The notes under the pieces: model-generated
Seen by the model: the letters and a program-made list of their open reading frames with translations, nothing else
Told to the model about the DNA's origin: nothing
Databases searched by the model: none
Shown: piece after piece, positions 817-44,425 of the stretch
Layout: each line of letters opens with the position of its first letter
Numbering within the stretch: the stretch's first letter is position 1
Translations under genes and position numbers: made by a program
From: a bacterium UBP8_UBA817
GTDB taxonomy: Bacteria > Margulisbacteria > Marinamargulisbacteria > SXXA01 > SICP01
Direction of reading: 5' to 3'
Length of the DNA: 64,000 nucleotides
Assembly (NCBI GenBank): GCA_945898045.1
Contig: CAMDGG010000001.1
Coordinates: 36,148 to 100,147 of the forward strand

Positions 817-896
817 AAAGAGAACTCTCCCCATTTTGGTGTTAGTTATGATAGTATCATTTGATAGGTTTAAAGACAAAACGAGGTGTTAATCAA

Positions 897-1448
897 ATGA
901 AAATTATCGTCAAGACACACAATGTTAAGCTCACAAAATCTCTAAAAGAATATGCTACAAAGAAGATGGAAAAATTAACAAAGTTTTTTGATAACATACA
1001 AGATGTTGTTGTAGAACTTCATATGGAAGATACTGCAGCCATTAACCAACGTCAGCTTGCGCTAGTGACAGTTCATGCGTCTGGCACCGTAATTCGTGCA
1101 GAAGAAACGTCTCAGGATTTATATGCGAGTATCGATTTGGTTTTTGACAATTTAGGCAGACAGCTGCGCAAACATAAAGAACGTCTTCGGGATCACAAAA
1201 AAGATTTACCTGGAAAACGTCTTATAGCGGATTCTTCTGACGAAGTTTCAGTCAAAAAAAGCAAGATGCCTTCTGCTTTTTCCCCTGATGACTTATTTGA
1301 GCCCAAACCTCTCGAAATTGAAGAAGCTTCTCGCCAAATGAGAGAAAATCGTCTTCCGTTTTTGGTATTTCGAAATTTCAAAACAGAGAAGATTAATGTT
1401 GTCTATCCAACAGGCACTTCTTCTTTTGGAATTATTGATCCCGCTTAA
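897..1448 (+). CDS. hpf: Ribosome hibernation promoting factor (long HPF/RaiA family)
   Basis: MKIIVKTHNVKLTKSLKEYATKKMEKL...IRAEETSQDLYASIDLV..LGRQLRKHKERL, plus the C-terminal KPLEIEEA..QM....FLVF.N...INVVY domain. GAGGTG RBS precedes ATG 897. Confidence 0.93.
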   Translation: MKIIVKTHNVKLTKSLKEYATKKMEKLTKFFDNIQDVVVELHMEDTAAINQRQLALVTVHASGTVIRAEETSQDLYASIDLVFDNLGRQLRKHKERLRDHKKDLPGKRLIADSSDEVSVKKSKMPSAFSPDDLFEPKPLEIEEASRQMRENRLPFLVFRNFKTEKINVVYPTGTSSFGIIDPA

Positions 1449-4208: not shown

Positions 4209-4475
4209 CTAGGCCTGAAACGACCGATTTTGCTTTACTTTCAATCTTTTCAACCCAATTTGCATCAGAATCTTATCTTTTTTGCTTAAGTCCAAAACAT
4301 CCTCGAGTTTGGCTTGATACAATTTGAGGCGATGTTCTGTTTTATTAATGTACATATCCAGTCTTTTTATTTTCTTCTGAATTTCTTTCGCACTAACGGT
4401 CGGGTCTTGTCCATCCGTAAATTCGACCAAGACACTTGCTGATTTCACAGTCTCTTTTTTAGGTGCTGATGTCAT
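4209..4475 (-). CDS. Hypothetical small coiled-coil protein, 88 aa
   Basis: ATGA overlap with the upstream ORF stop (4472-4475) and a heptad pattern. Confidence 0.7.
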   Translation of the reverse strand: MTSAPKKETVKSASVLVEFTDGQDPTVSAKEIQKKIKRLDMYINKTEHRLKLYQAKLEDVLDLSKKDKILMQIGLKRLKVKQNRSFQA

Positions 4476-9271: not shown

Positions 9272-12200
9272 ATGAGCGCATTTCCTAATAACATTAATCA
9301 AAATTCAGATGCTTTTCGGGTTATCAAAAACCCCTTGTACCCCATGGGTTTACCGGAAGGGTTTTCTGCGCCTACAAATCAGATATCTGATCTATCGTAT
9401 ATAGACGAGTTAGCCCTGTCGCTCCCAAAGGGGGCTATTGACGACCTGTTTTTACGGAATAAGCTTTTGAGTATTTTGGATGCGGAGGCTGTTCAGGGGG
9501 CCGCCCAATCACTCTGTCGAGATTATTTACTTCATGGAACCTCCGCTCTACATTCGCCAGAAGACAGTCAACAGGTGCTAAGATTTTTAACAGAACTACA
9601 ACATCCTGCACGTGCTTTAAAATGTGGATTAAGCTTTGAACATCTAGAACTCCTACATACCGCAGCAAAAGGGATAGAGCAGCTAGAGTCACTCCCCCAG
9701 CTTTCTCAGATACCCAATGTGGGCGAGTCTATCCGAGATAGCTTGATAGACGAAGCGGGCTTTTCGGATGCGGAACTTACGTTTAGGCGGCGTGCTCAGT
9801 TGGTGGATGCAAACGCGAGTGAGCTGGTTTCTTTGACCAATGGCCTGTTTCAAATGGGCATCTTGTATGTGGGCATGTCTACCTCGGAAACAGCAGCTAC
9901 GGTATTGGCCTATGTGCAAGACCATTTTTCTTATATACAGGATGGTGCAGATGATCATTGGAATACGATTGCTGAAACGCTAAAACAGAAGGGCGGAGAT
10001 TGCGAAGATTTGGCGATGCTCACAAGCTCGCTTTTGATGCAAGTGTTGAAGCATCAGGGGTTTTCAGACGACGCCGTGCATCACATGGTTACAGTCAGTT
10101 CTGGATATATCGCAACTGATGAGGGGCCGACTAAAATTGGGCATACCATTGTGCGTTTTAAGGATCCTAGCGGTGAGACGTTAGCACTCGATGCGACTTC
10201 AAAAAATAAGCCTCTTTTGTTTTCGGATATTCCGTTTGATGAAGTGCTTCGGTTTAACGATAAAAAATTTGTTCAGCTTCAAACAATTGATCCTTTTTTT
10301 GAAACGGCGGCTCAGGTTAATTTTCGTATAAACCTTGCCGAGGGAACAACATTTGCTGCTTCTGATAGCCAAATTAATGAGGCTCAGAAGTCTATTCTAT
10401 ATAGCATTAATAAGTCAGCGGAGCGTCTCCAAGAGCATGCTTCTCTAAAGATTAAGATTCCTAGATTACGTCATGGCAATCTATACCAAGCGATGAGTGT
10501 CGAGGGATATAAACCGATAATCCCTCAGACTATTCTGCCCAATGGGGATTTTACGGCTCAGAGAGCGAATATGCCGGGCGCCACTTTTGGTTTTTTGGAG
10601 CTTTTACAAAGTGATTTTATACCCAGAACTGTAGACGCTACCAAAATATATTACGATACGCTTGTGGATGCTCTGTACCTGAAAGATAGCAAGCAGGCGA
10701 TGGTGAACGCGGGGTACAGTAATACATCTGGGGTTTATAAAACGTTTAATGTCATTACGGGGAAATATAACTCTTTAACCGGCAGTGAATTTACTGCGCT
10801 TCCGCCAGATGCTGTGGTTTATCGAAGTCTGCTCGCGTATCAGGAAATAGGGTCCGGCCTAGGTCACATTAGTCCCTCTACATTTCGTCGTGATTTAGCC
10901 AATGTCGATTCGGACGGACATGCTATCGATCCTACCTCAAACTTCATTGGAGGACCGGATGAATTTTTTAATATCAGAAAAGTTAGGGTGGAGATTAATA
11001 GTGCTGTCGACTCCTTTGACATGTATACCATACAAATTAAGGAGGAACGGTTTTTTCATTATATTGAAGATATTCGACAATTCGTAAATAAACTGACCGG
11101 ACTTTTTCTGATATCAGCCTCTTACTTGGAGTTGCTGCAAATTGCAGCTCGGGAAATTGGGGATCAGTCTCTTAATGATGAAGAAAAACAAGCCGCCAAT
11201 GCGAGACGTCAAGATGAAGATAAGCAGCATAACAAATTTGCTGAAATTATTGGAAAATGGCAAGACAAGATGGGGCAAGGCGTTCGGGATATTGAGCATG
11301 AATTAAATAATTTTATTCGGGCAACGAATGAGTCTGAGGCCGCTCGTGTTGGGTTTCTTGTAGATATGTACCCAAGAAAGATAGATGAGGCAGGCAAAGA
11401 AGATGCAGGAACGATCGTTGCAAACGTTTTCACAGGTATTGGCACTGATTTAACCGATGAATTTACGGGCGCATTTACGCAGGCAAAATCTACGGCAAAA
11501 TTTAATTTGTCTATTGTTCAGACCTCGCTCTCTGCCTTTAATGCGCAAGCAGGGTTGAGCATTACTGAACGTATTTCCAAACACATTGATCTATGGGACG
11601 CAGAACATGGTCATGCCGAAACTGAAGAGGCCATTACCGGCAACATTAACAACCCTCTGTATTTCGGCCGATCGACTTATGACGTTCAATATGGCAGTTC
11701 CAGCTTCCAAGCACTATCCAAGCGCACTAGTCGAAACGCCATTATAGAAAATATACAATTTGTTAAAAATACGGATCTTGCTGAGATACTAGGTATTATT
11801 GAGGATAAGAATAACTTTAGCCCTGCCGCCGCTGGCGCCGCTGGGGCCATCGAACTTAATTTGGGTGCCAATCGCACTGAGATTCAGCAGAATGCCGGTG
11901 CTGGACCCAGCCGTTTATTTAACGAGGCTCCTAATGTCAAAAACGATGCTGGGGCTGGAGCAGATCCTGTCATCCCTAATCTTGTCACAGATGCCCCAAC
12001 CAATAACGAGCCCAATGTCTCTATGCTCGCCAAAGTTAATAACTTAAAAATAAAAATGGAAACAATTCAAAGTCAAATAACCAATGCAGCGACTTTAAAT
12101 CCACCTTTGACGCAAACCCAGATTGCGGTACTTCAGTCTGATCTTCTAGCAGCGGATGCAAAGCTAGACGATACCATGGGCATTACCAAACAGCGCCAAG

Positions 12201-27200: not shown

Positions 27201-29281
27201 CTGAGCCTGATTATCAACTGATTCGGTCACACAAAGAAAGTATGCCCGACGCGGCAAATGCTTTAGATCCCAAAAAGGCACTCCCTAGCGCCAAAGACCC
27301 ACAAAGTTATCGTCAGGAACTACACTCCATTAATAATTATTTATTAAGCCAAGGCCCTGCGGGTGCAGCTCTTAAAACTGTGATGGACGCTAGAGTTATG
27401 GCAGAATCTCCTAAGATCGGTCACGACATAGGCAAGAGTCTGACTACCGACTTACTTTCTACCCCTGTATCACAAATCTCATCGGAATTAATGGCGGGCA
27501 CGGCTGTATTGCGCGATAGTGATTTTACAAGTACTGGCACACTAGAGAAACTTATTTCTACCGGATATATTGATTCAAAGACTGGCAGAGTAACTGAGAA
27601 ATTTATGACGCTAGAGCCACCACACGACAAAGGTCCGTTACCTGGTCTTGAAGGCGAGTTTTTGGGGCAACATCAAGCTATTCGGGATAAATTAACACAG
27701 GCGGCGGGTAGGCAAGCAGAAGGTTCTCAACGGTCTCAAGAAATCTTAAAAGCCTTAATTCCTGCGAATGCCGAAAAATTGTATAAATCTATCCATACCC
27801 TCGCCCCGGATTCTCAATTATATCGTCAATTGGCAGTAACGGGACATGCGCTGGTTAAAGAACTCGCTAGCCAAGCCGATGCGCTTGCTGCAGAGAAGAA
27901 CAACGCTACGGACCCTGTCAAATTACGACACATCGCATCCCAAGAAGAAACCCTTAAATCACATCTAGAAACTTTATATATTGGTGCGCCAAGTATGTTT
28001 ATGGGCGCACTAAAGACTACTGGCAGTTCAGAAGCTTCGGCAAGAACTTTAATGGGAATGAAAGGTGCAGGGTCCATTACGCAAACTTTTGATGCAGCCA
28101 AAACTGCCGCTGCAAGAGTCAAAACCGTCGATCCCGCAGCAAAGAGACCTGACAACCCTATCTTAGAAGCGTTTAAACCCATTGCAAATCATAACTCCCC
28201 CAAAGAATTTGCCTTGGCGTTACGCGCTACGGATTCTCTTCCAGAAACTAAAATACAACAAGTTCCAGTTCCAGGAAAACCAACACCTCCAGATAAAACA
28301 CTGATGGATAATTTTAAAGCGGCTCTTGGGAAGCAGCAGAAACAAGATGGTTTAGCGTCAAAATCTGAGGCATTTATCCGTTATTTTGGGTTTCAAGATG
28401 CCGATAGGCAAGAAGTGGCAGATGCGTTGCGTATCTTAGAATTCACCTCTCCAGATATGACCGGCAAAGAGCACCCAGAGTCTATGGCTAAGGACATACA
28501 AACCCTGCATGAAACACTCCCTGTGTTTGCTGGTGAAGGCACTGTCACCGTCAATAAAGGCGCGATGCAACATGCGATGGGATTAACTGGAGAAGATGGT
28601 GTGGCTGATCGTGTGTTTAACGCCTTGAAAGATACTGGGATGATTACAATGTCGGGCAACACCGTTGAGATTCCTAGTAAGCCCTTCACAAAAGCACAGT
28701 GGGACGCACTGAATGCGCACCTAAAATCTAAAGATCCTCTGAACACGCTTCAACTTTCGGATAAAAAAACAGACTTTCTTTTGTCAGATGCAAAAAAAGC
28801 CTTTGAGTCACGTCAAGAAAATCTTGATAGCACCAAGATTCTCTCTGCAGTTCAGACACTTTATGTTGACGAAAAGGGGAATTTGACTAAGGCGAAACTA
28901 AAGAAAGATTTCCCTGTTTTTGAAACTAATCCAGATAAATTAGAAACATTAAAATTTGAGCTTGCCATACACGGGTTGGAGTCGTCCAACAAAGATGTTC
29001 AAGCTGCAGCTGTTCAGTCGTTGGTTACAAAGAATGAACATAAGGGTTTTCGTGAGCAAATGGTGGAACGGGATAAAACACAGCCCGAATTAAAACTTCG
29101 AGAAAAGCTAGAAACTGCAATGAAAAGTACAACAGGATTGGCTCGGAAAGACATTACGACACTTGAACCAAAAGCTACGGATGAACCTACTCATGTAAAT
29201 GCAGCGTTTGCAAAGTTTGATGAACAGCCAAATCCTACTCTATCTGATTTGAAAGCATTGGTTATAGGTTTGCAGACATGA
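9272..29281 (+). CDS. Giant 6669-aa protein: N-terminal transglutaminase-like cysteine protease domain, degenerate helical/hydrophobic repeats, long helical body
   Basis: Uninterrupted 20-kb ORF with a GAGGGAG RBS. VLAYVQDHFSYIQD..DHW...ETL..KGGDCEDLA (Cys244), GHTIV (His291), LALDAT (Asp307). Confidence 0.9.
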   Translation: MSAFPNNINQNSDAFRVIKNPLYPMGLPEGFSAPTNQISDLSYIDELALSLPKGAIDDLFLRNKLLSILDAEAVQGAAQSLCRDYLLHGTSALHSPEDSQQVLRFLTELQHPARALKCGLSFEHLELLHTAAKGIEQLESLPQLSQIPNVGESIRDSLIDEAGFSDAELTFRRRAQLVDANASELVSLTNGLFQMGILYVGMSTSETAATVLAYVQDHFSYIQDGADDHWNTIAETLKQKGGDCEDLAMLTSSLLMQVLKHQGFSDDAVHHMVTVSSGYIATDEGPTKIGHTIVRFKDPSGETLALDATSKNKPLLFSDIPFDEVLRFNDKKFVQLQTIDPFFETAAQVNFRINLAEGTTFAASDSQINEAQKSILYSINKSAERLQEHASLKIKIPRLRHGNLYQAMSVEGYKPIIPQTILPNGDFTAQRANMPGATFGFLELLQSDFIPRTVDATKIYYDTLVDALYLKDSKQAMVNAGYSNTSGVYKTFNVITGKYNSLTGSEFTALPPDAVVYRSLLAYQEIGSGLGHISPSTFRRDLANVDSDGHAIDPTSNFIGGPDEFFNIRKVRVEINSAVDSFDMYTIQIKEERFFHYIEDIRQFVNKLTGLFLISASYLELLQIAAREIGDQSLNDEEKQAANARRQDEDKQHNKFAEIIGKWQDKMGQGVRDIEHELNNFIRATNESEAARVGFLVDMYPRKIDEAGKEDAGTIVANVFTGIGTDLTDEFTGAFTQAKSTAKFNLSIVQTSLSAFNAQAGLSITERISKHIDLWDAEHGHAETEEAITGNINNPLYFGRSTYDVQYGSSSFQALSKRTSRNAIIENIQFVKNTDLAEILGIIEDKNNFSPAAAGAAGAIELNLGANRTEIQQNAGAGPSRLFNEAPNVKNDAGAGADPVIPNLVTDAPTNNEPNVSMLAKVNNLKIKMETIQSQITNAATLNPPLTQTQIAVLQSDLLAADAKLDDTMGITKQRQAIVDTTKRLNAITADPTLPPGPNFYAPAIKYASIAEETADLTKILNGTPGVQPSLQKKLDDMLVSKAKHSVPPSEIQAADLLTKENLDKVNAQVSGQSPDIPAAAGGSERYFFDYNMPRQATMRRDLIQYQNFMRAALIAKQNLTGKIKEEAAKLGDSQGSGSETILRRYASQALEADLSIQYGAFDNAMQETFQLGSLLNELATHQLEYYRATQMAAMKATKFALQLVVEATSMAAGNALSPLSTLAFADPFYFSYLFNTVATQAVDTLGAGWEMGIDKATAEYYRPTIMQLSDTEFNTAYTNQKLNSQSIKTFDQATLDSKKTLDLFSQDSFQFFEHATDSLLLHTQNLFNPVVTRSFTKDGGTASGNTYKDTVPIFIQDRHDGFYVTDGYEMYLREGPSRTSKDLSIPRSEAATNFEQPLWSYFAKIKMYMFVLYALYDAVETILGDMFGTQKSSNIQKFDGMIDSFVGYQRSLIGNFKQETSAFLQSTKQNAEKEKKIEFDIYDVASAGTKIAVAALSAFPNAGRVLVMSGNILADAAEMIRKRAAGTFAGTFAEYRDRSGSTKPAAPIVLNASLFPEYTTLDPIKEKAVIDLEVLQTIVTGFNEATLSDPLGDYTRYNPTKLKLPDPSKAPASEREAIAQDARRYLSWFELDQMESKVINEMYLKNQNDPYHPTALQYTTANFTDIIAAQTSLNNIFTIRTIYMMIEQGLLNAKQQTIKDMFGHSISSNILSKTMAIVDQYNQSQLDSINSLTQEFSSRAEAHNKYEEEVMGLEVDSAAIPIGAVAFWIVTPTPNPTGGGGSKYANWEKKIVAGKSGKQAAQSLGNLTIGLVGIISGLEKKINPIKSEFLNYEVATQQDKDRDANIKEKTDEKDKLEKKQKSGTPLTDDEKKTLSKLKNDTGPGSLASMQTAKIRSTQKRQESDSTNINMGQDQLKFVGSGQMVVQRGAKNEATSKLTRKARQAEMIQQVRLSLADAFMDSSDEMSGSKSSRSYRGVIGIINRTKGVESSQIDLMEQALEAKANESNRAMNKIVSAAVSMIAQGIEALAAKKVAKAKSGDAREKRSLKVEKNKKNIKHLEKKQADKKAQGKKLSKSDAKDLKLLQTRTKKLEAKQEKSNAKAEAKEKKSGPKPVTKADKLRNHWLGARNEFKGGSKWAKVLHTIGRVAGGVGHMLYRLLTLPIYLINKAFTVIAKVLAWKEARNNKAAAKTMKKKEDKQDKKIKAKEDKVKELSNKLNDAQEKKESGGLVVHLSDKEKASINAEISTLQTDISSMSASMQSMKMTRISLETPKVSKEQSDEGSNPNVTEIQRNAKARDQMRSKRQWRVTGHMSQILANIIADGIISASTGSNMGLAGQANLAKITDGIDGDNVLAGNDGDMGIKDTADLENATLGMQLEKANSQASTEVMRIQNRFDQAAARALRQHALDPLIKASLGMSRKQQEATIEQKKHELTDMIIRIQRRKQKGSDSNPTPVTRDDIIKEMGWKGAVAAGIMTGGIKYANAVSRFMFGNGKTYATIDTDLKDKASAKGDKSVESKLDEKINELEKMTSRTKEQDTTLVEYKNHKKLIEDVRTFEGKIRQSAEEKVKLAGQLRESGEDSSAVSNLVLSADEEKALPEMKIKLDAMNKDRKKEFGIEDASVSGWSKLGAYAKRTGFMNLLGFNVQIQSGKSVLANSKNDKQFQFAVQQLFLERRILESKIAYDEARSTDATYADQLLGQRRMRLQDAENVLTVGANLERMTEDLKGNAILEPVQKSFQELQDVTDRVLKLGTFTESDLASAMGTQDTEAVSKLFKSLVDSGYAEKAMATILVPDGVDANGNPKFSEKQVPAIMMTAKYYSRMSRHSDKNSDGTLVDPVDRLIKNAGFTDTKTAKTLLTQFSGSTEALDSIYRARNDMETAAATLMSGMTLSTTQVSTFQKALKTLSPVDLEKKLPSFIMTQGTDGVLTPVELGKTTDLSNHVPIMVVNGDPGNEELSVLWVTSSTSATEAALLEKLPKGTRLFKAETDKALLPDPNFEGSKAAEYDTAVSNVVDAMSSSNQVSVDNVAALTKLTTFLNNFTNTTATAGHAPAGSAAQAIGRSQGFNKALRAVNLATRTSMDARDDISRRLLNSGVEEDDIKAILEDLYKDELINKTTGQATNLTPDNIKAAVSKRKGDTVKAILQQSLTDQYQQRTIKDDIERRGGKTQAEYQSFLNLLDTSISLADTTYNAGGATPNTNEQNALTALKTVISAYGQKASDTANDQKRFVMGVRTSNAQVFSYDDVKFDVFGSFGKGLTGAALERLDVVAPQNRRNLAIGRAQEELGINPARAVRSLRELYKEDYIRNEAGEILYNTDMAAMANKPSAANPPVLRFNVQKAFFEDVEKAASRIHGHMNTEGGAQIAAQIVMATIDNFSQAGKEYMEEETRNFLPHLLRIFQNEAPEDAEKLIAALIAQNQNNPRGLATVMDGISRAGQTDVQFFKGLVDQNKAQRFALSVLQLNLGGQTASMGLNPTEEAAMMMEQRGIDVNKNAADFRQAIIKSENIVDIFAHTTAADLQQGGFAAIIKNDQDFVTVEEKLKAVASDKMAPDGKRFLANQALRNIYAARDKSPNTNDIDLFSGDTTLSPKEFGAIGQSGLFSKPLYGNKGVNENLEELANKLRDPKTRTQTVAALNASGGAGIRDLSILLSQANNSDVGAVRHESAGQKGFVAATAILDNLIDINSADSEAVLFKLAPVLAGPLRSSLPTQTVSKYLDQPNSQRTTDPDALIALDLTTRFKNDQASSQQFLNGVTTSNKEGVRSATPAFINELDNADDEKLRKFAALVAKSLATQSTTTGANGQDTLVGDELLATVAIPVLTEEQNKKFAGYLGEEVEKFNKHLTDGNKIDIDERINKLAARTAHEHKDKADQFRDSLNHGMLSRRPQFLLGKDLKTGLADEAKKLANKPDSSADVAALNTFNRDMVLHGDRQAAAALITELLTVTTPEAKQHANAAKRLTRSVGQLTLNPTERQRASLEAYYTDVMKTTKGLIDNPDTADTIKEIHQHAQDQLRLLSAQAPTAPGKDTVATRLAGDIRTNLFKLDSAGNADPSKAAKSMVSNSFQARDRGRDTFSKITTSSTAAPNSPQQNALEAVKNFRDNILDDSTIRPETMLQHLNTSVVGSINTLTEGVDALGNPADRQWMRTVGDLALLSHEKDIDEFAKKTGSEGAHARALQGPLKEAKARVMKTYLLNATADQINTFSKDPKRVQMLADMLPDIVLSREEKTMLNPTGSRETLTDKTQTSLDKDGVAILTKLLSSGTDYEATRPLMPKILDLLDTPMGNADRTSLEPLVEKRLTQQLSTLSNTDTAALNETAQQLLQFQNHQGGDALEPTQELKETLVKLLPPGNSAIQYIKDATSYKELNRILKTVTDPSLDKIKGHLATLETKETAFKQDQTLGEKLKAGEAIADHSDAINEMMKDPKRMEAFKKSHGPQYLEILTSMPRKQLQKLSDSQIDSSTTVLAHPDLSLLLNGTNKDILAGYMNGDLSLFLAATPKEQAVMLPLLNLDPGKFSTLMENVESKTLPPADLKALQDGKILNKQGFIHPEFLLPDGNGLNPVGAAAVSDLLPTNSASIIQELNAAASGVESREKLVDTLQKEVRNSSNISSQEMQSSLQTLQKIKSKLQNRTQDAFGQLADMANTAQKQAMDKDVQPYHETVAKMAGTLQNMQPELLKLGVSQDAIDKLKSNDPDTLQFEILDILKTARANAGGGEQIQLDKITQQLSTAVFAYALDPKVQERTAVKENLQKFLGTLSKDAKNPIAILLKNSDSPELLDGILTLCKGKDNEAMLAAVLPLCFTDATIKIDPDKTKPVDAKTLQLMSLLQSNQEAGKDAGIAILNTLSPDKQVDILNLLYSGTNPNGSARDIAALLPKTTGPDNSPIALSKLPFSDLHEEGLARLLPVLNKMALATAKNIIPQLKIMTDPNLEPYANQMSLLLSSELQTPAGLRRITELEVTSKLMKKATTNPAQFQTDLADKILKTPIESDFSSTFSMLMSDQASQQQIISLMNANPAVRDRLVSFVTSDQSGTMISSRTLNSMMQSTQFKAAVTKNIGSNKDVSGERADLLYHALRLSSAKGIRQKESMTFESSPDKGKATIGKMMQLSLQDGKTSDLRNFFLRDTATKNMVLDHIADGLAGTPGAILSKQQAMKALNVLYTPEMAVGALEKGFKAQYALATNPQEKNAAIDSFLKETLQNPDFLSSLPPAQRNNMMGQVMRSVTAWVGKNDAGIKATLDGLANVANDPNHTAPEHVREQAKEITLQFKDETEKAQFSNAEQTLEIEYANATDATEKNAAIDKFLKASQAFLASASPDNVNDRIDHVFDNISDLTKEPSLKIAVINSFIQQTILDKDFLKNMPDDNRNKLIEKVLNNITTLLEDPHAAKTMLTYLSTQTNAAPHVATHAKSLLQSGAAAPTASTLLADLQNTPEFKTKWASDPAYRETMLKEMTEGLKASPPDPMILALASPGIDGTRPLDSLLNDTYPSPKERAARQRFLDKLYEAKTKDPSFKIKEKAEFAMWIGKHQPAGSISATQFVDSKKGLTLEQSQDIHTTLKDNGFLDASGRVTRMLDSTTVSEIKALFSTSLSPDQIQGVLSTLTTASSGSPASQTSFLVNDLLPKFDPSYKAHKKGYTKQLTAACQSVMDSKDLSDQQKLEWLKVLSKQGNEKHETAALKALHTYTNKMASTAVTKEEKAAAAAQKAIFTELLAFSITSQPSVYLTQANNQISPMGQLLKTIVENDLNDPANPGSVVFGLTSALQKTPYPMFVIDTALEYVYLSKSTFTDKREHYRSVFKTMLRKAAVENNVGVMNALHVMGSHLAYQGQSVTFLHEVLSETNTFTQGELLGISDLSPVKKGESTASLQARAKDDAARATKASDFLLKRLSAHDNGFLTYDKASKTYIRTAKELTSPDELKLDDFFRNKDFFPTPPTQADRTRILNSMVNELSAGPRLISSMVSAAKSEPDYQLIRSHKESMPDAANALDPKKALPSAKDPQSYRQELHSINNYLLSQGPAGAALKTVMDARVMAESPKIGHDIGKSLTTDLLSTPVSQISSELMAGTAVLRDSDFTSTGTLEKLISTGYIDSKTGRVTEKFMTLEPPHDKGPLPGLEGEFLGQHQAIRDKLTQAAGRQAEGSQRSQEILKALIPANAEKLYKSIHTLAPDSQLYRQLAVTGHALVKELASQADALAAEKNNATDPVKLRHIASQEETLKSHLETLYIGAPSMFMGALKTTGSSEASARTLMGMKGAGSITQTFDAAKTAAARVKTVDPAAKRPDNPILEAFKPIANHNSPKEFALALRATDSLPETKIQQVPVPGKPTPPDKTLMDNFKAALGKQQKQDGLASKSEAFIRYFGFQDADRQEVADALRILEFTSPDMTGKEHPESMAKDIQTLHETLPVFAGEGTVTVNKGAMQHAMGLTGEDGVADRVFNALKDTGMITMSGNTVEIPSKPFTKAQWDALNAHLKSKDPLNTLQLSDKKTDFLLSDAKKAFESRQENLDSTKILSAVQTLYVDEKGNLTKAKLKKDFPVFETNPDKLETLKFELAIHGLESSNKDVQAAAVQSLVTKNEHKGFREQMVERDKTQPELKLREKLETAMKSTTGLARKDITTLEPKATDEPTHVNAAFAKFDEQPNPTLSDLKALVIGLQT
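13847..13872 (+). repeat. Exact 12-bp in-frame tandem duplication (AGTF-AGTF)
   Basis: GCGGGGACATTC twice, followed by GC. Confidence 0.85.
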
Positions 29282-35214: not shown

Positions 35215-38200
35215 GTTCTGGGCTACACCCCATTTCTCGGGCTGAAAAACCGCTTCTATCTCAGCTACTCTTGCTTCAATTGGGTTCTTCTATTTTTCCT
35301 GAGCTCCTTGAGGAATTTCCAGAACGACTTTTAATTCTTGAGCATATATTAGGACCTATTGCACTCTCTACAAAAACACGGTCTACAGCTTCTTTACTTC
35401 CCCTTGTTTTATTACTCAACCGTCCGAATTCACGCTTCGTTTTTTCTTTCACTGAGTTCTTTCAAGAATTTTTTCGCTTGGCGCGGTCTATTTTTCTGCG
35501 TAGGGCATTTGCTTCACATGTGTGGCTTAAGCAAGATCTTGGCTTGTTATGGCAGAAGCATCTGGATATTTTTTCTCGTCAGGCGTTACTGACTTGTCGG
35601 TCTCAACATGAAATTGTACGTTTTTTTCTGCGTTTTAGGCCGGGTATTGCAGGGGTGGTGGTTTTACAGAGATTAGATCCGATTTTGCTGGATTTTCGTG
35701 TCAGTATTCCTACCGAAAAGGAGAGTCGAAAACATTTTTGGGAAAACCCGTTACTTTATGCGCTTCCGTCCAGTATTCAGCGTCGATTTGATGTCTTTAT
35801 TAAAGCGTATCATCGCGCCTGCTCACGTCCGTGCGCACAAGAACTAAATGCGCTCGTGCATTACTATCACCATCTTTTGCTGGCCTTTCTGTCAGACTAT
35901 GAAACGCATGTGTCTCTTGTCCAGGATCTGCTTATATCTGGTCAAACTGACCGAGATACAAATACAACGTTACATGGCTACTTACATCACTTACAGGTGT
36001 TTCAAGAAAGCATTGATCATCTGATGCGTATGACACCTCTTATGGGTGAATTGGGCTGCAATCTGAGAGCCTTGTACTTAGAGGGATTGCGATTATCAGT
36101 GTCTTTTACGTATCGAGGGGACTCTCTTTTTTCTAGCGCCTCTATATTAAAAAAGGACGCGCTATCTTCTGTCCGGCAAATTTTAATTTATCATGGATTA
36201 CCTCTGGATTTTGAGCCACTTTTTACAGGCCACCTCCAAACTACCCAACGGTTAGCACGTAGTATTCAGGAACACCTCTCTGTCTTTGAGGGCATGAGAG
36301 ACCAGTTGACGGTGATGTTTCAACAATCGAAGGCACATCAAGCACGCTTTCAAGAAACGCGGTTACTTTATCACCGTCCTTCAGAAGAAACGATGCACCG
36401 AGTGATGACGTTTTTTTTCCAAAAGCAAGATCTTGCTTTTGCTTTTTCAGCCTCTAACACGTCGCTTCTTTTTGAGCTGATTTCTCAAGAAGTTTCAATG
36501 GCTCAGTGTCATGCTTTTTGGGCGCAAGGTGTAGTGGATCGGGTTTATTCTTTAATGCAATCTCTTAGTGCTCCCACAGTTATTTTTGGCGTATTTCCCC
36601 TGTCCCATTTGGTTCGAAAAGATGTCGTGTATCAGTTTCACGCCTTACTCAGAAATGTACGACACTACATTAATAGTCATGACCTAGACGCTTCTAGCCA
36701 GTGGCTTCTTTCTATTTTGTGCGCGTCCGAAAGACGGCCTGTTTATCATTTTTCTGGTCTCTTGATCCATTATCTGAGCTTAGGACTTCCTAATGATCTC
36801 TTTCTGGCTATTATTCGCAGAATGGCTGAAATCGTGAAGGGATCCAATCGACCACTGTTTCGCTCGGCTATTGGAGAAGCTATATCGCTTGTAGATACGC
36901 AGCTTCTTTCTGTCGTCCCATCTACATGGTCTGCATCAGAAAAATGGCGAAATAGCCCCTATTTTTTAAATACACTGTCGGGGTATTCCCGCAAATTACT
37001 TTTGCAAGATTCTGAGATACCGTGGACATCGCTTCTGATTGATATGGGTCCAGAGGAAATGACGCATTCTCCGTTGATCCTTACGCTGACCTTTCATTAT
37101 GTTCCTCAAACTTTAGAGGAGCAGATTTTGACGCCTTATTTGTCTGCATTGTTACGACAAAGCGAGGGGCGTTATGCGTCGAGATATCGTGCAAAAGAAT
37201 CACTTCTTCTACTCAGCGCCCTATTTCCCGAATCTCAGCAGCCTGCCGCTCTAGCGTCTTTCACAGAGTATGTTTCTCAAGCCGGAGAAGATATCAGAAA
37301 CAAAGCTGATTTGGTGTCTGTTTTTTCGTCTACACCTTTGTTTCCGTTTGCAAGTTATCATTGGAAGCAGCATTGGCTTTTGGCCGTTTCGGCTTCGCTT
37401 CAGCAGTATGCCTCGTCGGATTCTTTTTTATTTGTTACCAAGTTATTAACGCCACAGCTGCTTGCATCTTTGTCTCGTGCATTTGTAGAGGCTTGGGTTT
37501 GCGGCATCCCTCATAGTCAGGTTTTGTTTACACAACTTGCGCTTTTGAGTTCTTATGATCCAGCGTTGGTACGCCGGCTTTCGGATAGTATGGCCAAAGA
37601 ATTTCTGGCGCTTTCTTTATCGACCGTTCAGCTTGCTTTGTTTTATGATTTTTTAAGACAAAAAGAAGTGGCGGGAAGCGTTCTTGTATCAGAGGTTGCG
37701 CGTCGTATTCAGCGACGGCTTGATCAGGATATCGAGGAAGAGAGTCCGGGTCTGGTGGTAGAGAGTAGGAATACAATGTCACTATCGGATGTTTTGTCGA
37801 TGGTCCGAACTATTCCCCCGACAGCTGTACACGCCAATCCATTACTAACGGTAGCGTATCAACCGTTTATTCATGAGTTCTTCGTGTCTCCAGATGTATT
37901 TTTTTGGTATGGGGCCCAGCTTTCACTCACGCCAGATGCGCATCGAAAATTACGGATTTATTGCAGTACCACCTTGCCTCATTTTTACGCACTATTCCCT
38001 CAGCCTTATCATACCGTTTTTGATGTTATAGCCGACGCATTTAATCAAGCTTCTCTTTCTGGAAAAATAAGCTCAGAGGCAGGTCTATCCCATGAGTTAC
38101 ATCTGGTGGGTTCGTCGGAATTATTAAGCCCTTATCAATCTCTTTTACTTTCTCATCTCTGTCTTCTATTAGATTTTCTAGAGTTCCCCGAAAATAGCGC

Positions 38201-41200
38201 TAAATGGTGTTCTGTTTTGTATTTTCTTACAGATGTCGATGACGTGGTGCGCGGCTCCATTTTACCTATACTTTACAACTTTAATCAGTTTGAGGAATTG
38301 CTTCCGTGCTTATCAACATTATCTTCTTCGGACTGTTTATCTCATCTTACGATTGTGCAATCCGTGCTTCCAGATTTTCTAAAAACCCTTCTTTTTCCTT
38401 TGGTTAAAATGGGGAAATTTATGCCGAGTGATCTGACTGCATTTGCTGACGATGCCCCTACGGCTCAATTCTGTCTTGATGTCACACATTTTGTAGAGTG
38501 TATTTCTCGAACCAGTTTAGAAAATCCTGTATTTAGTGAAGCAGACAAGGCCGTGATTGCTAGTGTGACGCGGAACTATGGTGATTTTTTACAAGTATTT
38601 TCTTGTCGCGAGCCTGAGATGTATTTGCGATTTGTCGCTATTACGTGTCGTTTTCTTGATAGTTTTGGTTCCGTATCTTTATATGATTCCGCATTATATG
38701 AAGGCCTTTCAAATGCAATGCAAGCACTCCCCCTAGGCCTGCCTGCGGCAGAAATCTCTCGGTCTGGCATTCTCCACGCAATGCTGTCGCAAGCGTCAGA
38801 TTTAGATGCGCTGGATACGCTTTCTAGTGTCTTTTTTGATCAGTTTACGTTGCCGCAACAAACGGGGTTTTTATCGTTGATTAGATACAATTTTGACTTG
38901 GTTCTTCCTGTATTTGAAGCAAAGTTGTCGCAGTTTTCAGACGATCGTTATCGTAGCTCTGTTTACTTAAAAACGTTTGGCCATTGTTTGTCCGCGCTGT
39001 CTGCCTCTCCTGACTTATTGTTGTCGCATGCGGACAGCGGACTACTTTCGTCTTTGTATCAATTGACCCAGCATTTTCAACGTAAGCCTCTTTTAGATTT
39101 TGAGCATTTGTCTTCACTTGCAATGGAGAGTTTATTGGCAGTTCAGGAAGGGCGCTCAGCGGAAGTATCGTTGCGACGCGCCTGTCAAATTGTTGGAAAC
39201 TATCGTGATGAGTGGGCTCAAAAAGGATGGTTTCCTGCAGAAGAAATCCTTTCTCTGACTTCAGAAAATTTAGAAGAGTCAGATATTTTCCTTATTCTTA
39301 TCCCACTATTATCTGCAGTTGGCGCTGGTATTTACGAACTTTCGCCCGAAAAAGCTCGTTATTTGGATGACGCCACGAACCGTCTCTGCCGAGGACTTTG
39401 CGCGGGTCTGGTTCTGTATCCACAACGATTTATTTTGTATTCGGGTGCATTTTGGGCACGTGCTGCCGCTGTGATCGTTAGGTATTGTGACCAGGATCCT
39501 GCGTTTATTTCCAAATCTATTCCTACAGCGTATTCGAGTGTTTCTGTTCGGTACCGCCTTATTTATTTGGCGGAACTTCTTAATCGTTATGACGGGGCAT
39601 TGGCTGAGTTATTTACAAAATATAGTGGTCTGATGGGGCTGGAAACTTTATCACAGATTTTGGATGCTATTTTACTTTTGCACGAAGCCTCTTTTTCAGA
39701 CGATAAGCTAGCCCGTTTAATTCAAGAAACGCCCGATTCTGTACGTATTTGGTCGGGTCTTTATCGAGAGTATCCTGACTTTTGTATTCGACTTCTAGCA
39801 ACGCAATCTGAGTCTGCATGGTCCGATTTCCCCGTTGTATTACCGGCTCATCATTTACTGGTTTTACAAGCACCAGAAATGCTACAACTAGATTTTACAG
39901 AGTGGACTCATTTTGATTTTGGGAACGAAGATTTACCAAGCTTACTCTATCAATTAGGTCTTTCATATTTACACGCTATTAGTGCTGGAAAAGAGGATCT
40001 GGCTTCACGATGTTGTGTGTGGACAGGCCGATTCTTTTATCATTTATTGGCGTATCATCGGGATAAAGCCATTGATATTGCACCTGGATTTCTATGCCAA
40101 TTTCCCGATTTATTTTTCAAAGCTATTTTGGAAGGCCATCCCAATCTTAAAGTCTGGCTAGTAGATGCTATTTTATTTTCAGAGTCAGGGCTTCAGTGTC
40201 TCGATGCGTGTATCCCCATTATTTTATTGCGAGAACCTCTTTTCCAGACACTTGTTTTTGAGATGCTTAGAGAAAAACCTGCGCCATTATTCTGTACGGC
40301 TTATGTCTTATACCGTTATTTACGACATTTCCCCGAAGAAGCACTTTCGTTTTCTACCCTCCCCTACTTTACGGATACGATGTACTTCTTTTTACGTTAC
40401 GATCAATTAGATATGCTGATTTCTACACATCCTGAATTAAGAAATTTCTGCGCAGAACTACTTACCATTCATACCCCTACGGCCCCACTTGAGACGCCTA
40501 TTATGGACGTTATTTATGATGCACCGCTGTTGATAGACGAGACGATTGAAATACGTCTGATGGCCGCCTTGGCGCAACGTGCAGGACAACCCGAGAATGC
40601 GCACGAAAACGAGGTCTTAATACATCATGCGTTTATGATGCTTTCTAGTCAGTCTGATGCTATGAATCGTTTTTTACAGGCGCTTCTCGATAGATCTAGC
40701 TCATGGGACGATCCGGTTCTTCTTACTTTATTTGAAGGATGCCCAAAACAAACCAGCCTGTTTCATGAGTTGTGTAGTCGGGTTGTTGATTCTCAGGCAA
40801 GACTATACTTGCACCACTTTATTACCCAGTGCTTCACGCTTTGGCTTTTGAACCTCCAGACACAGCCTCTTGATCTTGTAACTTGTCTGGATTGGTTTTG
40901 TATTTTTCTTCAATTTTTACCTGAATCTGAAGGACTTATATTGTCGCAACAGTTTTTAGATTTCGGCATACCAGCTTCTAAGCAGTCTATTGCATTACTA
41001 TTGGCAGAAAGGCCTTTTTTAACCGATGCGATTCGTCTTAATTTGTTATCTTCCCTATTTCAAAAAAATGACCCGTATTTTATTGTAGATGCGCTTAAAA
41101 CCGCCGATCGCTCTGCACTCTTTTTCCCGCTGTGGAATGTCTTTTTAACCTCTAATGATCTTACTGTTTTATTGGCGGAAGAGTCCCCCTTAGATCGCTA

Positions 41201-42950
41201 TTTATATTCCGCATTTTGCCAGGCTTTAGTATCAGAAAACGGGGGACTTCTCTTAAGATATGGGCATGATTTATTTAGGCCTTTTCTGGTTAGATTTTTA
41301 GAGCGTTTTTATACCAATGAAGATAGTGCCGTTGCATTGGCGTGGTTTTTTAACCAAATTATTGAAACCCGACATACGGTCTTTCTGACAGCTTGGCATG
41401 ATTTTATTCACGCACAACTGTTGCACGCTGATTTGACTTGGTTTTTTTCTGTGATCGTAGACTTTGTACGTCAACAGCCTCGATCTGATGCGTGGGCGTT
41501 TCTTTTGATGGGCCTTCCGCCTCGATTTTTCTTATATTTTATTCCAGCTCTTTTTCAAGAGAACGGTTTTAAAGATGTTCGTCATCGTATTTTTGATGAC
41601 TTATTAACCATACGTGTTCCACATGAAACATTTTTGAGAGCCTTGGTTAAAACACTATCGACGCGTTCACTGGCCAGTCTCTTGCTTCATGAAAACCGCT
41701 CTCTGTTTATACGACAACAACTGGTTCAAACACTTTTAAGTTCTGATCAGGCGTATCGGGAATCGGTTTTGAATGACTTGATTGCGTCCGAACATCTCTC
41801 TGCTGAGCGTTATCGTGTCCTTCAAGAAAGTCTTTTACTCTTTCACATGTATGATCCGATATTAACAACGACTGTTTTACACTCACAACCTGACGTCTTT
41901 AGACAAAAACTTTGGGTATCTGTGGATGCATTAGAAGAGGCACGCACTCACCTCCTAAGTGCGATACGGCAATCTTCGGAAACAGATACCGAGGGATTTG
42001 TTCTTGCAAGTAAAACAGGATTGGCTCAGGTAGATCAGGGCTTTTCGTTGTTACCCATTGTGGCTGCAACGCTTGGACTGGATCAAGAATGCCCAGGTAT
42101 TTTCTCGACATTTTGCCATGTGATGCGACGCGCCTATCTTTCTGTTCTTTTGCCACCGAGGGTTTTAAGTCCTTTAGAAAAAGAACGGTTTTTTGCGAAG
42201 AAATTTCTTCAGGGAATTCATGTTGGTTCCAGTCGCTCTCCCCAAATTTCTTTGGCGTTTCTTTTTAGACTATTGTCTCCTTATGTTGAGTTGCCTTTTG
42301 ATTGTGATCGGCTTGTGGAAGATGTTACGCAATGGACAGCGTGCCTGAAAAGTCGTGATTTCCATGCGTTGGGCGCTCCTCATTTTTATTATGTAATGAA
42401 TACGTTACACCCAACAGACTTGGAACAGATCTCGCGTCTCTATCCGCTTCAACTTTCTCCTAATTTCTTACTATTGCAAGGTATTCCTGAGGCATCCGTT
42501 TCTCTGATTTGGACGGGATTACAAAATACTGGCGTTATCAAATCTGATGGCAAAGTGGTTTATGATCGACTGGCCCATCCGATTGCGTTTCATGAGCTTT
42601 ACGAAACTGTTTTCGAGAGCCTTAATCGCACCGTTTTGGAAGACAGCCAGAGACTTCAAAACGTCATCATGCAGTCAAAAGATCTTTATGCCATCACCCA
42701 TTATCGAGGACGCAAGTTTAGAACAGCATTTTGTCGATTGTTTTTAAACCAAGATCCAGACCACCAAGCCTGGCTTACAGAATGTCTTTATCGGTTGGAT
42801 ACAAGCGATCCTGGTGCTCAGCCGCTCATACAAAATCTGACGGATATGCTGGTCGCAGAATGTGGAATTTCGGATGTGTATTGGACGCCAGAAGCTTTGT
42901 TTTCTCTAGCTGAACAGATGGATCAGTGGCTCTCGCTGAGTATTACGTGA
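35211..42950 (+). CDS. Giant Leu/Phe/Ser-rich alpha-solenoid-like hypothetical protein, 2579 aa
   Basis: 7.7-kb open frame with an ATGA overlap with the upstream gene. Amphipathic helices throughout and no catalytic motif recognised. Confidence 0.85.
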   Translation: MSSGLHPISRAEKPLLSQLLLLQLGSSIFPELLEEFPERLLILEHILGPIALSTKTRSTASLLPLVLLLNRPNSRFVFSFTEFFQEFFRLARSIFLRRAFASHVWLKQDLGLLWQKHLDIFSRQALLTCRSQHEIVRFFLRFRPGIAGVVVLQRLDPILLDFRVSIPTEKESRKHFWENPLLYALPSSIQRRFDVFIKAYHRACSRPCAQELNALVHYYHHLLLAFLSDYETHVSLVQDLLISGQTDRDTNTTLHGYLHHLQVFQESIDHLMRMTPLMGELGCNLRALYLEGLRLSVSFTYRGDSLFSSASILKKDALSSVRQILIYHGLPLDFEPLFTGHLQTTQRLARSIQEHLSVFEGMRDQLTVMFQQSKAHQARFQETRLLYHRPSEETMHRVMTFFFQKQDLAFAFSASNTSLLFELISQEVSMAQCHAFWAQGVVDRVYSLMQSLSAPTVIFGVFPLSHLVRKDVVYQFHALLRNVRHYINSHDLDASSQWLLSILCASERRPVYHFSGLLIHYLSLGLPNDLFLAIIRRMAEIVKGSNRPLFRSAIGEAISLVDTQLLSVVPSTWSASEKWRNSPYFLNTLSGYSRKLLLQDSEIPWTSLLIDMGPEEMTHSPLILTLTFHYVPQTLEEQILTPYLSALLRQSEGRYASRYRAKESLLLLSALFPESQQPAALASFTEYVSQAGEDIRNKADLVSVFSSTPLFPFASYHWKQHWLLAVSASLQQYASSDSFLFVTKLLTPQLLASLSRAFVEAWVCGIPHSQVLFTQLALLSSYDPALVRRLSDSMAKEFLALSLSTVQLALFYDFLRQKEVAGSVLVSEVARRIQRRLDQDIEEESPGLVVESRNTMSLSDVLSMVRTIPPTAVHANPLLTVAYQPFIHEFFVSPDVFFWYGAQLSLTPDAHRKLRIYCSTTLPHFYALFPQPYHTVFDVIADAFNQASLSGKISSEAGLSHELHLVGSSELLSPYQSLLLSHLCLLLDFLEFPENSAKWCSVLYFLTDVDDVVRGSILPILYNFNQFEELLPCLSTLSSSDCLSHLTIVQSVLPDFLKTLLFPLVKMGKFMPSDLTAFADDAPTAQFCLDVTHFVECISRTSLENPVFSEADKAVIASVTRNYGDFLQVFSCREPEMYLRFVAITCRFLDSFGSVSLYDSALYEGLSNAMQALPLGLPAAEISRSGILHAMLSQASDLDALDTLSSVFFDQFTLPQQTGFLSLIRYNFDLVLPVFEAKLSQFSDDRYRSSVYLKTFGHCLSALSASPDLLLSHADSGLLSSLYQLTQHFQRKPLLDFEHLSSLAMESLLAVQEGRSAEVSLRRACQIVGNYRDEWAQKGWFPAEEILSLTSENLEESDIFLILIPLLSAVGAGIYELSPEKARYLDDATNRLCRGLCAGLVLYPQRFILYSGAFWARAAAVIVRYCDQDPAFISKSIPTAYSSVSVRYRLIYLAELLNRYDGALAELFTKYSGLMGLETLSQILDAILLLHEASFSDDKLARLIQETPDSVRIWSGLYREYPDFCIRLLATQSESAWSDFPVVLPAHHLLVLQAPEMLQLDFTEWTHFDFGNEDLPSLLYQLGLSYLHAISAGKEDLASRCCVWTGRFFYHLLAYHRDKAIDIAPGFLCQFPDLFFKAILEGHPNLKVWLVDAILFSESGLQCLDACIPIILLREPLFQTLVFEMLREKPAPLFCTAYVLYRYLRHFPEEALSFSTLPYFTDTMYFFLRYDQLDMLISTHPELRNFCAELLTIHTPTAPLETPIMDVIYDAPLLIDETIEIRLMAALAQRAGQPENAHENEVLIHHAFMMLSSQSDAMNRFLQALLDRSSSWDDPVLLTLFEGCPKQTSLFHELCSRVVDSQARLYLHHFITQCFTLWLLNLQTQPLDLVTCLDWFCIFLQFLPESEGLILSQQFLDFGIPASKQSIALLLAERPFLTDAIRLNLLSSLFQKNDPYFIVDALKTADRSALFFPLWNVFLTSNDLTVLLAEESPLDRYLYSAFCQALVSENGGLLLRYGHDLFRPFLVRFLERFYTNEDSAVALAWFFNQIIETRHTVFLTAWHDFIHAQLLHADLTWFFSVIVDFVRQQPRSDAWAFLLMGLPPRFFLYFIPALFQENGFKDVRHRIFDDLLTIRVPHETFLRALVKTLSTRSLASLLLHENRSLFIRQQLVQTLLSSDQAYRESVLNDLIASEHLSAERYRVLQESLLLFHMYDPILTTTVLHSQPDVFRQKLWVSVDALEEARTHLLSAIRQSSETDTEGFVLASKTGLAQVDQGFSLLPIVAATLGLDQECPGIFSTFCHVMRRAYLSVLLPPRVLSPLEKERFFAKKFLQGIHVGSSRSPQISLAFLFRLLSPYVELPFDCDRLVEDVTQWTACLKSRDFHALGAPHFYYVMNTLHPTDLEQISRLYPLQLSPNFLLLQGIPEASVSLIWTGLQNTGVIKSDGKVVYDRLAHPIAFHELYETVFESLNRTVLEDSQRLQNVIMQSKDLYAITHYRGRKFRTAFCRLFLNQDPDHQAWLTECLYRLDTSDPGAQPLIQNLTDMLVAECGISDVYWTPEALFSLAEQMDQWLSLSIT

Positions 42951-42976: not shown

Positions 42977-44425
42977 ATGAATACTGAAGAACTCATCAAT
43001 TTAGTAAACCACTTAACAAATCGTTCTGAGGAATGCGAGTGGATTGAATTTAAGCACAACTTTCATTCTCCTGAGGAAATCGGAGAGAATATATCTGCCT
43101 TATCAAATAGTGCTTGTTTGCAAAATCAACCCTATAGCTATCTTGTCTTTGGCGTTCAAGATCGAACACATCAAATTGTAGGCACTCTCTTTAAAGCAAA
43201 GTCCTCCAAAGTAAAAAATGAAAATTTAGAAAATTGGTTGGTAAATCGTCTTAGTCCCAAAATTGATTTTTCAGTATATGAATTTGATTATGAGGGAGAT
43301 AAGCCTATCTCTTTGTATATGATTCCTGCTGCGAAAACACATCCCGTAACTTTTTCGCGAATTGCGTATGTTAGGGTAGGCAGTAGCACAAGAAAATTAG
43401 CTGATTTTCGCGAGAAGGAGTCTAAAATTTGGCGTAATAATAGTACCTCTTTTGAAGAGGAGATAGCTAAAGAAAACCTGTTGGCTTCAGATATTGTTAA
43501 CTTATTAAACACTCAGACTTATTTTGAGCGCCTAAAATTACCATACCCCTCAACGCAAGAAGGCGTAATTGAAAAATTCATATCTGAGAAACTGATTGTT
43601 AATGCAACGACTGGTTATTCCATTACCAAACTGGGTGCTATTTTATTTGCAAAAAATTTGGATGATTTTTCTTTGATACAGAGAAAATCTGTTCGAGTTA
43701 TTGTCTATAAAGGTGTTAGTAAGGTTGAAACTATTCGGGAGCAGATGGGAACCAAGGGCTATGCCGTTGGTTTTGAAGGATTGGTAGATTGGGTAAATAG
43801 TCAGCTTCCGGCCAATGAAGAAATAGGCAAAGCCTTCCGAACAGATTCAAGAATGTACCCAGAAATAGCTATTCGGGAAATTGTTGCCAATGCTTTGATA
43901 CATCAAGATTTTCTTGAAAAAGGGTTTCCCATGATTGAAATTTTTTCTGATAGGATTGAAATTTCTAACCCTGGAATTCCTCTTATTACACCCGAGAGAT
44001 TCATTGATGAATACCTTTCTCGAAACGAATCCTTAGCAGATTTAATGCGGCGAATGGGGCTTTGCGAGGAAAAAGGTAGCGGGTTAGATAAGGTCATTCA
44101 TTATAACGAGTTGTACCAATTGCCTGCCATAAATGTCATGGTTACAGAGAAAAGAACTAAGATCATTTTATATAGCTATAAAACACTTAATGCTACTGAT
44201 AAAAAAGAGAAAATTAGGGCTTGCTATCAACATGCTTGTCTTAAATATGTTTCAAATCAAAAAATGACTAATCAATCTCTGAGAGATAGGTTTAAAATTG
44301 ATGAACAGAATGCAGCGATTGCTTCTCGAATTATTAGAGATGCACTTGAAGAAAAACTGATTAAGGAAGACGATCCAACAAACAAATCCAGAAAATATGC
44401 TAGCTATGTTCCTTTTTGGGCCTAA
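42977..44425 (+). CDS. Schlafen/AlbA_2 domain + HATPase-like (RecG C-terminal type) + wHTH protein
   Basis: ECEWIEFKHN..IGENISALSN...YLVFGVQD, AYVRVGSS, YPEIAIREIVANALIHQDF, IEIFSDRIEISNPG, RNE.LADLMRRMGLCEEKGSG. More AT-rich than its flanks. Confidence 0.88.
   Translation: MNTEELINLVNHLTNRSEECEWIEFKHNFHSPEEIGENISALSNSACLQNQPYSYLVFGVQDRTHQIVGTLFKAKSSKVKNENLENWLVNRLSPKIDFSVYEFDYEGDKPISLYMIPAAKTHPVTFSRIAYVRVGSSTRKLADFREKESKIWRNNSTSFEEEIAKENLLASDIVNLLNTQTYFERLKLPYPSTQEGVIEKFISEKLIVNATTGYSITKLGAILFAKNLDDFSLIQRKSVRVIVYKGVSKVETIREQMGTKGYAVGFEGLVDWVNSQLPANEEIGKAFRTDSRMYPEIAIREIVANALIHQDFLEKGFPMIEIFSDRIEISNPGIPLITPERFIDEYLSRNESLADLMRRMGLCEEKGSGLDKVIHYNELYQLPAINVMVTEKRTKIILYSYKTLNATDKKEKIRACYQHACLKYVSNQKMTNQSLRDRFKIDEQNAAIASRIIRDALEEKLIKEDDPTNKSRKYASYVPFWA

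Follow-up and report, generated by a model that had tools for sequence, protein, structure and literature searches.

Not every protein of the OTU fold is an active protease: catalytically dead members, the pseudo-deubiquitinases, exist. In the typical OTU threading (PMC7396840), a Cys is followed by a His-aromatic-Asp/Asn/Glu motif. The same C...H-aromatic-D/N/E order marks the bacterial OTU-fold effectors (PMC7396840, PMC7690952), among them ChlaOTU, wMelOTU, RickOTU, the Legionella proteins ceg7, ceg23 (LotB) and LotC, BurkOTU, and EschOTU. Here we analyze a 64,000-nucleotide stretch of DNA, the window, from the bacterium UBP8_UBA817 of the Margulisbacteria (assembly GCA_945898045.1, contig CAMDGG010000001.1, positions 36,148 to 100,147 of the forward strand); the sequencing runs that hold it are lake and freshwater metagenomes. 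Its plus strand carries a giant gene (P0003, 9272-29281) encoding 6669 amino acids (aa) and, overlapping the end of that gene, an out-of-frame tail (P0001, 29268-29702) of 144 codons and a stop. We think it likely that this tail is a recently cut-off, most likely dead remnant of the giant protein's own OTU-fold module, separated from it by a frame-shifting deletion.

What does the 3' end of the giant gene look like? By direct reading, the tail frame follows a TAG at 29265-29267, is open from 29268 to 29699, and closes with a TAG at 29700-29702. It lies in the +1 phase relative to the giant open reading frame (ORF), and the two are jointly open over 29268-29278 only. The giant protein ends in ...LVIGLQT; its TGA (29279-29281) is immediately followed by TAA, and these tandem stops (29279-29284) terminate the giant frame at the presumed deletion junction. 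No ATG, GTG, or TTG occurs in the tail frame before 29553, that is, over 95 codons, and the sole piece visible to gene callers is an ATG-started ORF of 49 aa at 29553-29702 (protein library entry P0005). The original prediction, made from the letters alone, had described a 144-codon +1 frame after that TAG with no usable start near its 5' end, and this description is correct in each particular. The peptide motifs it quoted, TIREHIAQLA, IHVLLG, and GGLHFERL among them, are all present in the tail translation. A frame invisible to gene callers can thus be read as a domain remnant.

The identity of the tail rests on a homologue. A search with the last 800 residues of the giant protein returned a sole relative besides the window's own protein, the 7047-aa P0004. 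The two are collinear with 87.6% identity over the body; in windows of 133 residues, the median identity is 95% and the 5th percentile 56%. The LVIGLQT of the giant aligns with P0004 residues 6862-6868, and P0004 extends 179 residues beyond. Residues 12-143 of P0001 align with P0004 6922-7044 at 32% identity (E 5e-12), placing the homologous window DNA, 29301-29696, on residues 54-176 of the 179-aa P0004 tail. From these two alignments it follows that the module is collinear and in frame in the homologue. Judged by the protein alignments, the tail is the C-terminal module of the giant protein itself, which P0004 carries in frame and the window out of frame. The comparison of C-termini proposed in the original prediction thus places an OTU module in frame at the very C-terminus of P0004. 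All of this was done at the protein level, nucleotide-level comparison being impossible: DNA encoding P0004 was not found in the genome contigs searched. One metagenome locus (L003) was rejected as a source of such DNA, as it is a chance match to one back-translated pattern in an unrelated ORF of 325 aa.

Could the tail be a chance frame? Within the window, 40 frames stand open for at least 130 codons opposite real genes by chance. The decisive evidence is the homology to the P0004 C-terminus at E 5e-12, because of which the tail frame is not a chance one. Its codon usage agrees with a non-chance origin: the log-odds score is 0.403 in the tail frame and -0.42 and -1.12 in the remaining two frames, where real genes score 0.38 +/- 0.11 in frame (113 windows) and -0.77 +/- 0.29 off frame (226 windows).

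The part of the module that the window lacks is its catalytic front. P0004 residues 6869-6921 (53 residues) comprise, as modeled, the first strand, a D-G-N-Ala loop, the catalytic helix, and the approach to the next helix. In the window these residues are replaced by 22 nucleotides (nt) at 29279-29300, and, as 22 cannot be divided by three, the sequence beyond them moves into the +1 frame. A [DG]-G-x-[CS] motif is absent from all three plus-strand frames of 28900-29705, in line with the original prediction, which had seen no D/G-G-x-C loop. The OTU His motif is retained. His-Phe-Glu (HFE) at 29682-29690 supplies the OTU general-base His with its aromatic and acidic neighbors, and the terminal GGLHFERL, previously proposed to be the catalytic His strand, contains the His-aromatic-D/N/E motif as defined in PMC7396840. 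The His and Glu of HFE are invariant across all five aligned family members.

An AlphaFold2 model of the P0004 tail, built from a five-sequence alignment, reached a predicted local distance difference test score (pLDDT) of 84.8 and a predicted template-modeling score (pTM) of 0.81. In a Foldseek comparison of this model with the PDB, all 31 matches listed are OTU-family deubiquitinases, the best being OTUD3 (4bou, E 2.2e-4). By VIA, the model aligns with OTUD3 over 135 of 141 residues (Z 11.8, root-mean-square deviation 3.0), and the titles of 46 of the 50 matches listed name an OTU-family protein, while the other four name a deubiquitinase or ubiquitin protease. In the model, the Cys position (residue 30) is taken by an Ala with which helix 30-36 begins, and the last strand carries His172. 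As the nucleophile Cys is replaced by this Ala and the whole module contains zero cysteines, the P0004 module cannot be an active cysteine protease. Of the two alleles, then, one is Cys-less (P0004) and the other lacks the entire Cys loop (the window).

Modeled alone, the window peptide gave a pLDDT of 71.2, with helices at 83-90 and the last, His-bearing stretch below 50, a pattern expected of an incomplete domain. The original prediction had read the peptide as an OTU domain from the post-cysteine helix onward. The alignment with residues 54-176 of the P0004 tail, whose model matches OTUs, bears this out; a Foldseek search with the peptide itself returned OTU domains in 31 of the 31 matches listed, although weakly, the best at 3.8e-3 and none at E <= 0.001. 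These results support the assignment of the window tail as the remnant of an OTU-fold (papain-like, deubiquitinase-type) domain, from after the catalytic helix onward.

Sequence searches alone recognize little of this. Pfam, including OTU (PF02338), assigns no family to P0001 and finds no match for the P0004 tail or the relatives from the phylum described below in genomes G005 (L008), G028 (L014), and G022. A PDB sequence search returned no match for the window peptide, and the P0004 tail and three relatives were likewise without one. A word-index search with the tail among proteins of 253-2000 aa was also without a match. Across 1.84 billion representatives, HMMER recovered only the window's own 49-aa ORF; P0004 was probably missed because the representative standing for it is without the tail. 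In the ESM Atlas, recognition of the tail was below the usual level, with giant-virus clusters as the best matches and an OTU cluster at rank 9 (0.87), which we take as a lead only. The module family is a divergent branch of the OTU fold, invisible to Pfam and newly added to a known fold.

Is the break itself genuine? The source genome is a draft assembled from a metagenome, 84% complete in 28 contigs, and contigs are unable to reveal minor variants, so one might suppose an assembly or sequencing artefact, with the true gene running in frame into an intact OTU module. Against this, independent per-run Logan contigs of two studies have 0 differences and 0 gaps relative to the assembly over 28939-29758; one run (X1, possibly the source sample) has a depth of 70 and covers 28930-30100, and the other (X2, of the other study) has a depth of 4.1 and covers 28939-29758. 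Direct reading shows no homopolymer at the site of the frame break, and an indel error cannot account for 53 absent residues. An artefact is therefore exceedingly improbable, and the break is real DNA. Of the causes offered in the original prediction, an assembly join accordingly gains no support; a deletion is supported by the 53 residues of P0004 that face 22 nt in the window.

How might such an allele have arisen? In the sequence of events that we favor, about 46 codons' worth of DNA would have been lost from the front of the module, removing the first strand, the D-G-x-Cys loop, and the catalytic helix. Because the number of bases lost would not be divisible by three, the giant protein would now end with ...LVIGLQT, and what follows of the module would lie in the +1 frame without being translated. 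What remains in the 144-codon frame would be the rear two-thirds: the helical arm, the central sheet, and the His-Phe-Glu strand. The remnant is stop-free and has normal codon usage; it would itself most likely be functionless. The junction is spanned by an imperfect direct repeat (29277-29320), CATGAT(AA)TACAGAGA (29277-29292) and CATGATTACAGAGA (29307-29320), to which the original prediction had already drawn attention; it may be filler copied from neighboring DNA. Such gapped repeats (6+8 nt, gap 0-2, within 60 nt) are rare, occurring only twice in the 64-kb window by a pattern that was set post hoc, once the junction repeat had been seen.

The deletion lies within a larger divergent region. 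Giant residues 6476-6562 are 100% identical to P0004; the first mismatch is codon 6563 (GAG, 28958-28960; Asp in P0004), from which identity falls to about 57% up to the stop. This mismatch sets the start of a divergent C-terminal cassette at 28960-29278. The tail, at 32% identity, is far outside the range of the body, where only gap-filled windows approach that value. Contigs of run X1 break at the same base: one ends at 28959 and the next begins at 28930, with depth changing from 78.7 to 70 across the break. A 31-mer graph (k = 31 being assumed from the tool's description of 31-letter words) gives this pattern when sequences diverge at base 28960, and the break is not repeat-caused, because the stretch around 28960 is unique in the genome. 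Nucleotide 28960 is thus probably a recombination boundary, by which the entire 3' end from there on would have been brought in as a divergent allele. The same lake population appears to contain a second allele, possibly P0004-like. These features point to a swapped, polymorphic C-terminal cassette, and the C-terminal module swap proposed in the original prediction gains indirect support from the coincidence of the identity drop with the branch in the contig graph.

Two further features of the giant protein may be recorded here. Its identity to P0004 is a mosaic with short divergent patches, for example one of 20% identity over residues 6320-6344 and one with many gaps around 4358-4423, which suggests repeated cassette exchange inside the gene. 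Its only Pfam signal is a weak transglutaminase-like DUF553 at residues 202-257 (9875-10042; E 0.0019, 18.1 bits against a cut-off of 20.5).

When did the break occur, and is the tail still made? In a simulation of neutral substitution starting from the tail, at least one stop arose in 98% of 400 runs by the time identity had fallen to 32%, in 88.5% at 57% identity, and in 66.5% at 80%. Together with the intact codon usage, this argues that the tail was coding while nearly all of its divergence accumulated, in which case either the break is young or the tail is still read. We infer that the break is recent. The other possibility is that the tail is still produced, through a +1 frameshift at ACA-TGA that fuses it to the giant protein, or on its own as a small protein begun by re-initiation or at a rare start codon, and serves as a Cys-less ubiquitin-binding or scaffold piece. 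It is encouraged by the 144 open codons with gene-like usage, by the speed with which stops would accumulate under neutral drift, and by the nearest allele, P0004, which is Cys-less too, yet in frame and confidently folded, making a non-catalytic role conceivable.

The mechanics of the site argue otherwise. In the prfB +1 frameshift site, CTT TGA C, a slippery P-site codon that can re-pair is combined with a poor stop, and a Shine-Dalgarno-like element precedes them by a few bases. A programmed frameshift of the prfB type was rejected, as these features are missing at ACA TGA T: the pre-stop codon is ACA and the +1 codon CAT, which allows no re-pairing with Thr tRNA, and no Shine-Dalgarno-like (GGAGG- or AGGGGG-like) run occurs in 29255-29275. 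Passing the TGA by read-through would be of no help, because TAA follows. An ATG at 29278 in stop-start overlap opens the third frame, for about 36 codons, and a separate start is opposed by the want of any ATG, GTG, or TTG before 29553. The peptide would also lack the first strand and catalytic helix, and its last strand is modeled at a pLDDT below 50. A scan for promoters and terminators gave nothing above shuffled sequences that bears on the tail. On these grounds continued production of the tail seems very unlikely, and a recent, most likely dead remnant remains our preferred interpretation.

Several points nevertheless weigh against that interpretation. With a tail only 32% identical to that of P0004, the allele in the window may at no time have had exactly the same 53 residues. 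The 144 stop-free codons with perfect codon usage would be compatible with continued translation as well, and no RNA dataset is among the runs listed as containing the stretch. Runs X3 and X4 leave the junction uncovered, and contigs drop rare variants, so that minor alleles are not directly visible. The evidence for the second allele, finally, is a single break in the contig graph together with a step in depth (78.7 versus 70), in a run that is possibly that of the source sample.

Does the module occur elsewhere in the phylum? A family profile built from the two tails (window and P0004) was searched in 146 genomes of the phylum, and nine matched at E <= 0.01, G000 included; at least two of these are false. 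Five ORFs in five genomes (G022, G005, G028, G049, and G051) carry both catalytic motifs, a D-G-[NSA]-Cys-x-x-His-[AS] loop and a terminal His-[WY]-Glu motif, as in the 311-aa protein of G022 (GDGACGIHALFG ... GGAHWERW). The G049 ORF (L011) was the sole one of six proteins scanned to pass the Pfam OTU model PF02338 (29.5 bits against a cut-off of 23.3); it is more distant, its profile link to the window family spanning the Cys loop alone (hhalign 86.8%, 24 columns). Pfam OTU itself was found in six of the 146 genomes at E <= 0.001, four of them above the cut-off; neither G000 nor any of 14 control genomes gave a match. The module lies at the C-terminus or within about 40 residues of it in all six members whose ORF end is seen, namely P0004, those of G022, G005, and G028, L011 of G049, and, by homology, the window; the ORFs range from 311 to 7047 aa.

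In L010 (G051), L014 (G028), and L008 (G005), with frames of 2195, 2584, and 1051 aa, respectively, the Cys loop and His motif are intact. The His motif of L014 and L008 stands about 15 residues or less from the ORF end. In L010 the loop is mid-protein within the 1023 residues seen, and the His motif follows some 310 residues further on. L012 (G056; 463-1359, minus strand, 299 aa) has a D-G-S-Ala-T-I-H-A loop like the Cys-less loop of P0004 and is doubtful as a family member, being without the His-aromatic-acid motif. Two profile matches, L009 and L015, cover the helical part only and are likely false, seemingly belonging to a different protein, which we take to resemble NusA.

The tail found no match in 40 relatives, and the giant C-terminus none in 20, a same-genus genome (83% completeness) included. 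No second copy of the tail occurs in G000. In the library searched, no paper combined 'Margulisbacteria' with 'OTU domain'.

The surroundings of the giant gene were also surveyed. Downstream of the tail, at 29806-30514, an overlapping pair encodes an NTase_sub_bind protein of the HEPN type (E 2.6e-33) and a Pol-beta-type nucleotidyltransferase (E 1.1e-13), which looks like a HEPN/MNT toxin-antitoxin pair. It is followed by a protein with DUF4172 and Fic/DOC domains (30627-31733). A second giant ORF of 2579 aa (35211-42950) has no Pfam match at E <= 0.001, and the three ORFs preceding it likewise have none. Next comes a protein with Schlafen AlbA_2 and HATPase_c_4 domains (42977-44425). The HEPN/nucleotidyltransferase pair with the Fic and Schlafen genes suggests a variable, island-like neighborhood.

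What would the intact module do? It might be a cysteine protease of giant secreted proteins, self-processing or of some other kind, and not a deubiquitinase aimed at eukaryotes, in which case its loss would say nothing about ubiquitin. The C-terminal or near-C-terminal position in six of six members fits such a role, deubiquitinase activity is only predicted for the module, and a common fold does not show a common substrate. Yet all structural neighbors among the matches listed are ubiquitin or ISG15 proteases. The characterized bacterial OTUs cleave ubiquitin (PMC7396840), and the bacterial ubiquitin-like pathways described in PMC11601596 use JAB/JAMM or serine peptidases, not OTU. For bacterial Bub operons, too, that paper names JAB/JAMM and a serine protease and not an Otu peptidase. 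We regard this alternative to a deubiquitinase as distinctly unlikely.

A broader proposal is that the lineage's giant proteins are eukaryote-directed surface or secreted effectors ending in an unrecognized OTU deubiquitinase subfamily, with Cys-bearing relatives, the Cys-less P0004, and the deleted window copy as coexisting states of the module. We offer this as speculation that is rather unlikely as it stands. If true, the locus would record a conflict with protists that is still under way, between host and symbiont or predator and prey, in a phylum for whose lake members no hosts are known. Until now, bacterial OTU modules have been associated with lifestyles that involve eukaryotic cells, and their sporadic presence in an uncultured lineage is thus a testable hint of protist interaction. 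The window copy would itself be a dead end, of value as a means to date and document how a giant gene loses modules and exchanges cassettes.

How does the module compare with known OTUs? The P0004 module shares its fold, in which helices back a central sheet and a helical arm is added, with eukaryotic and viral OTUs (OTUD3 4bou, OTUD1 4bop, OTUD5/DUBA 3tmp, yeast Otu2 7pl7, and nairovirus vOTUs such as 3phw), with Z scores of 10.2-11.8 over 125-141 aligned residues and an identity of only 10-17%. As in those proteins, the nucleophile position of the family opens a helix after D-G-x, and the His-aromatic-acid motif is on the last strand. Unlike them, the window copy is without the whole Cys-loop segment and stands in the wrong frame, P0004 carries Ala where Cys would be, and the Pfam OTU model is blind to both and to the relatives from G022, G005, and G028. 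The bacterial effectors are represented among the structural matches of the P0004-tail model by wMelOTU (6w9o, Z 9.6). Those covered by PMC7396840 come from Chlamydiae and Proteobacteria living in eukaryotic cells, whereas the window genome is from lake water; here, moreover, the module forms the end of giant proteins 6.7-7 thousand residues long, and the window copy is broken. The pseudo-deubiquitinases offer a parallel of another kind: like them, P0004, as modeled, keeps a confidently folded OTU module without any cysteine, while the window copy differs from them in not being a whole domain.

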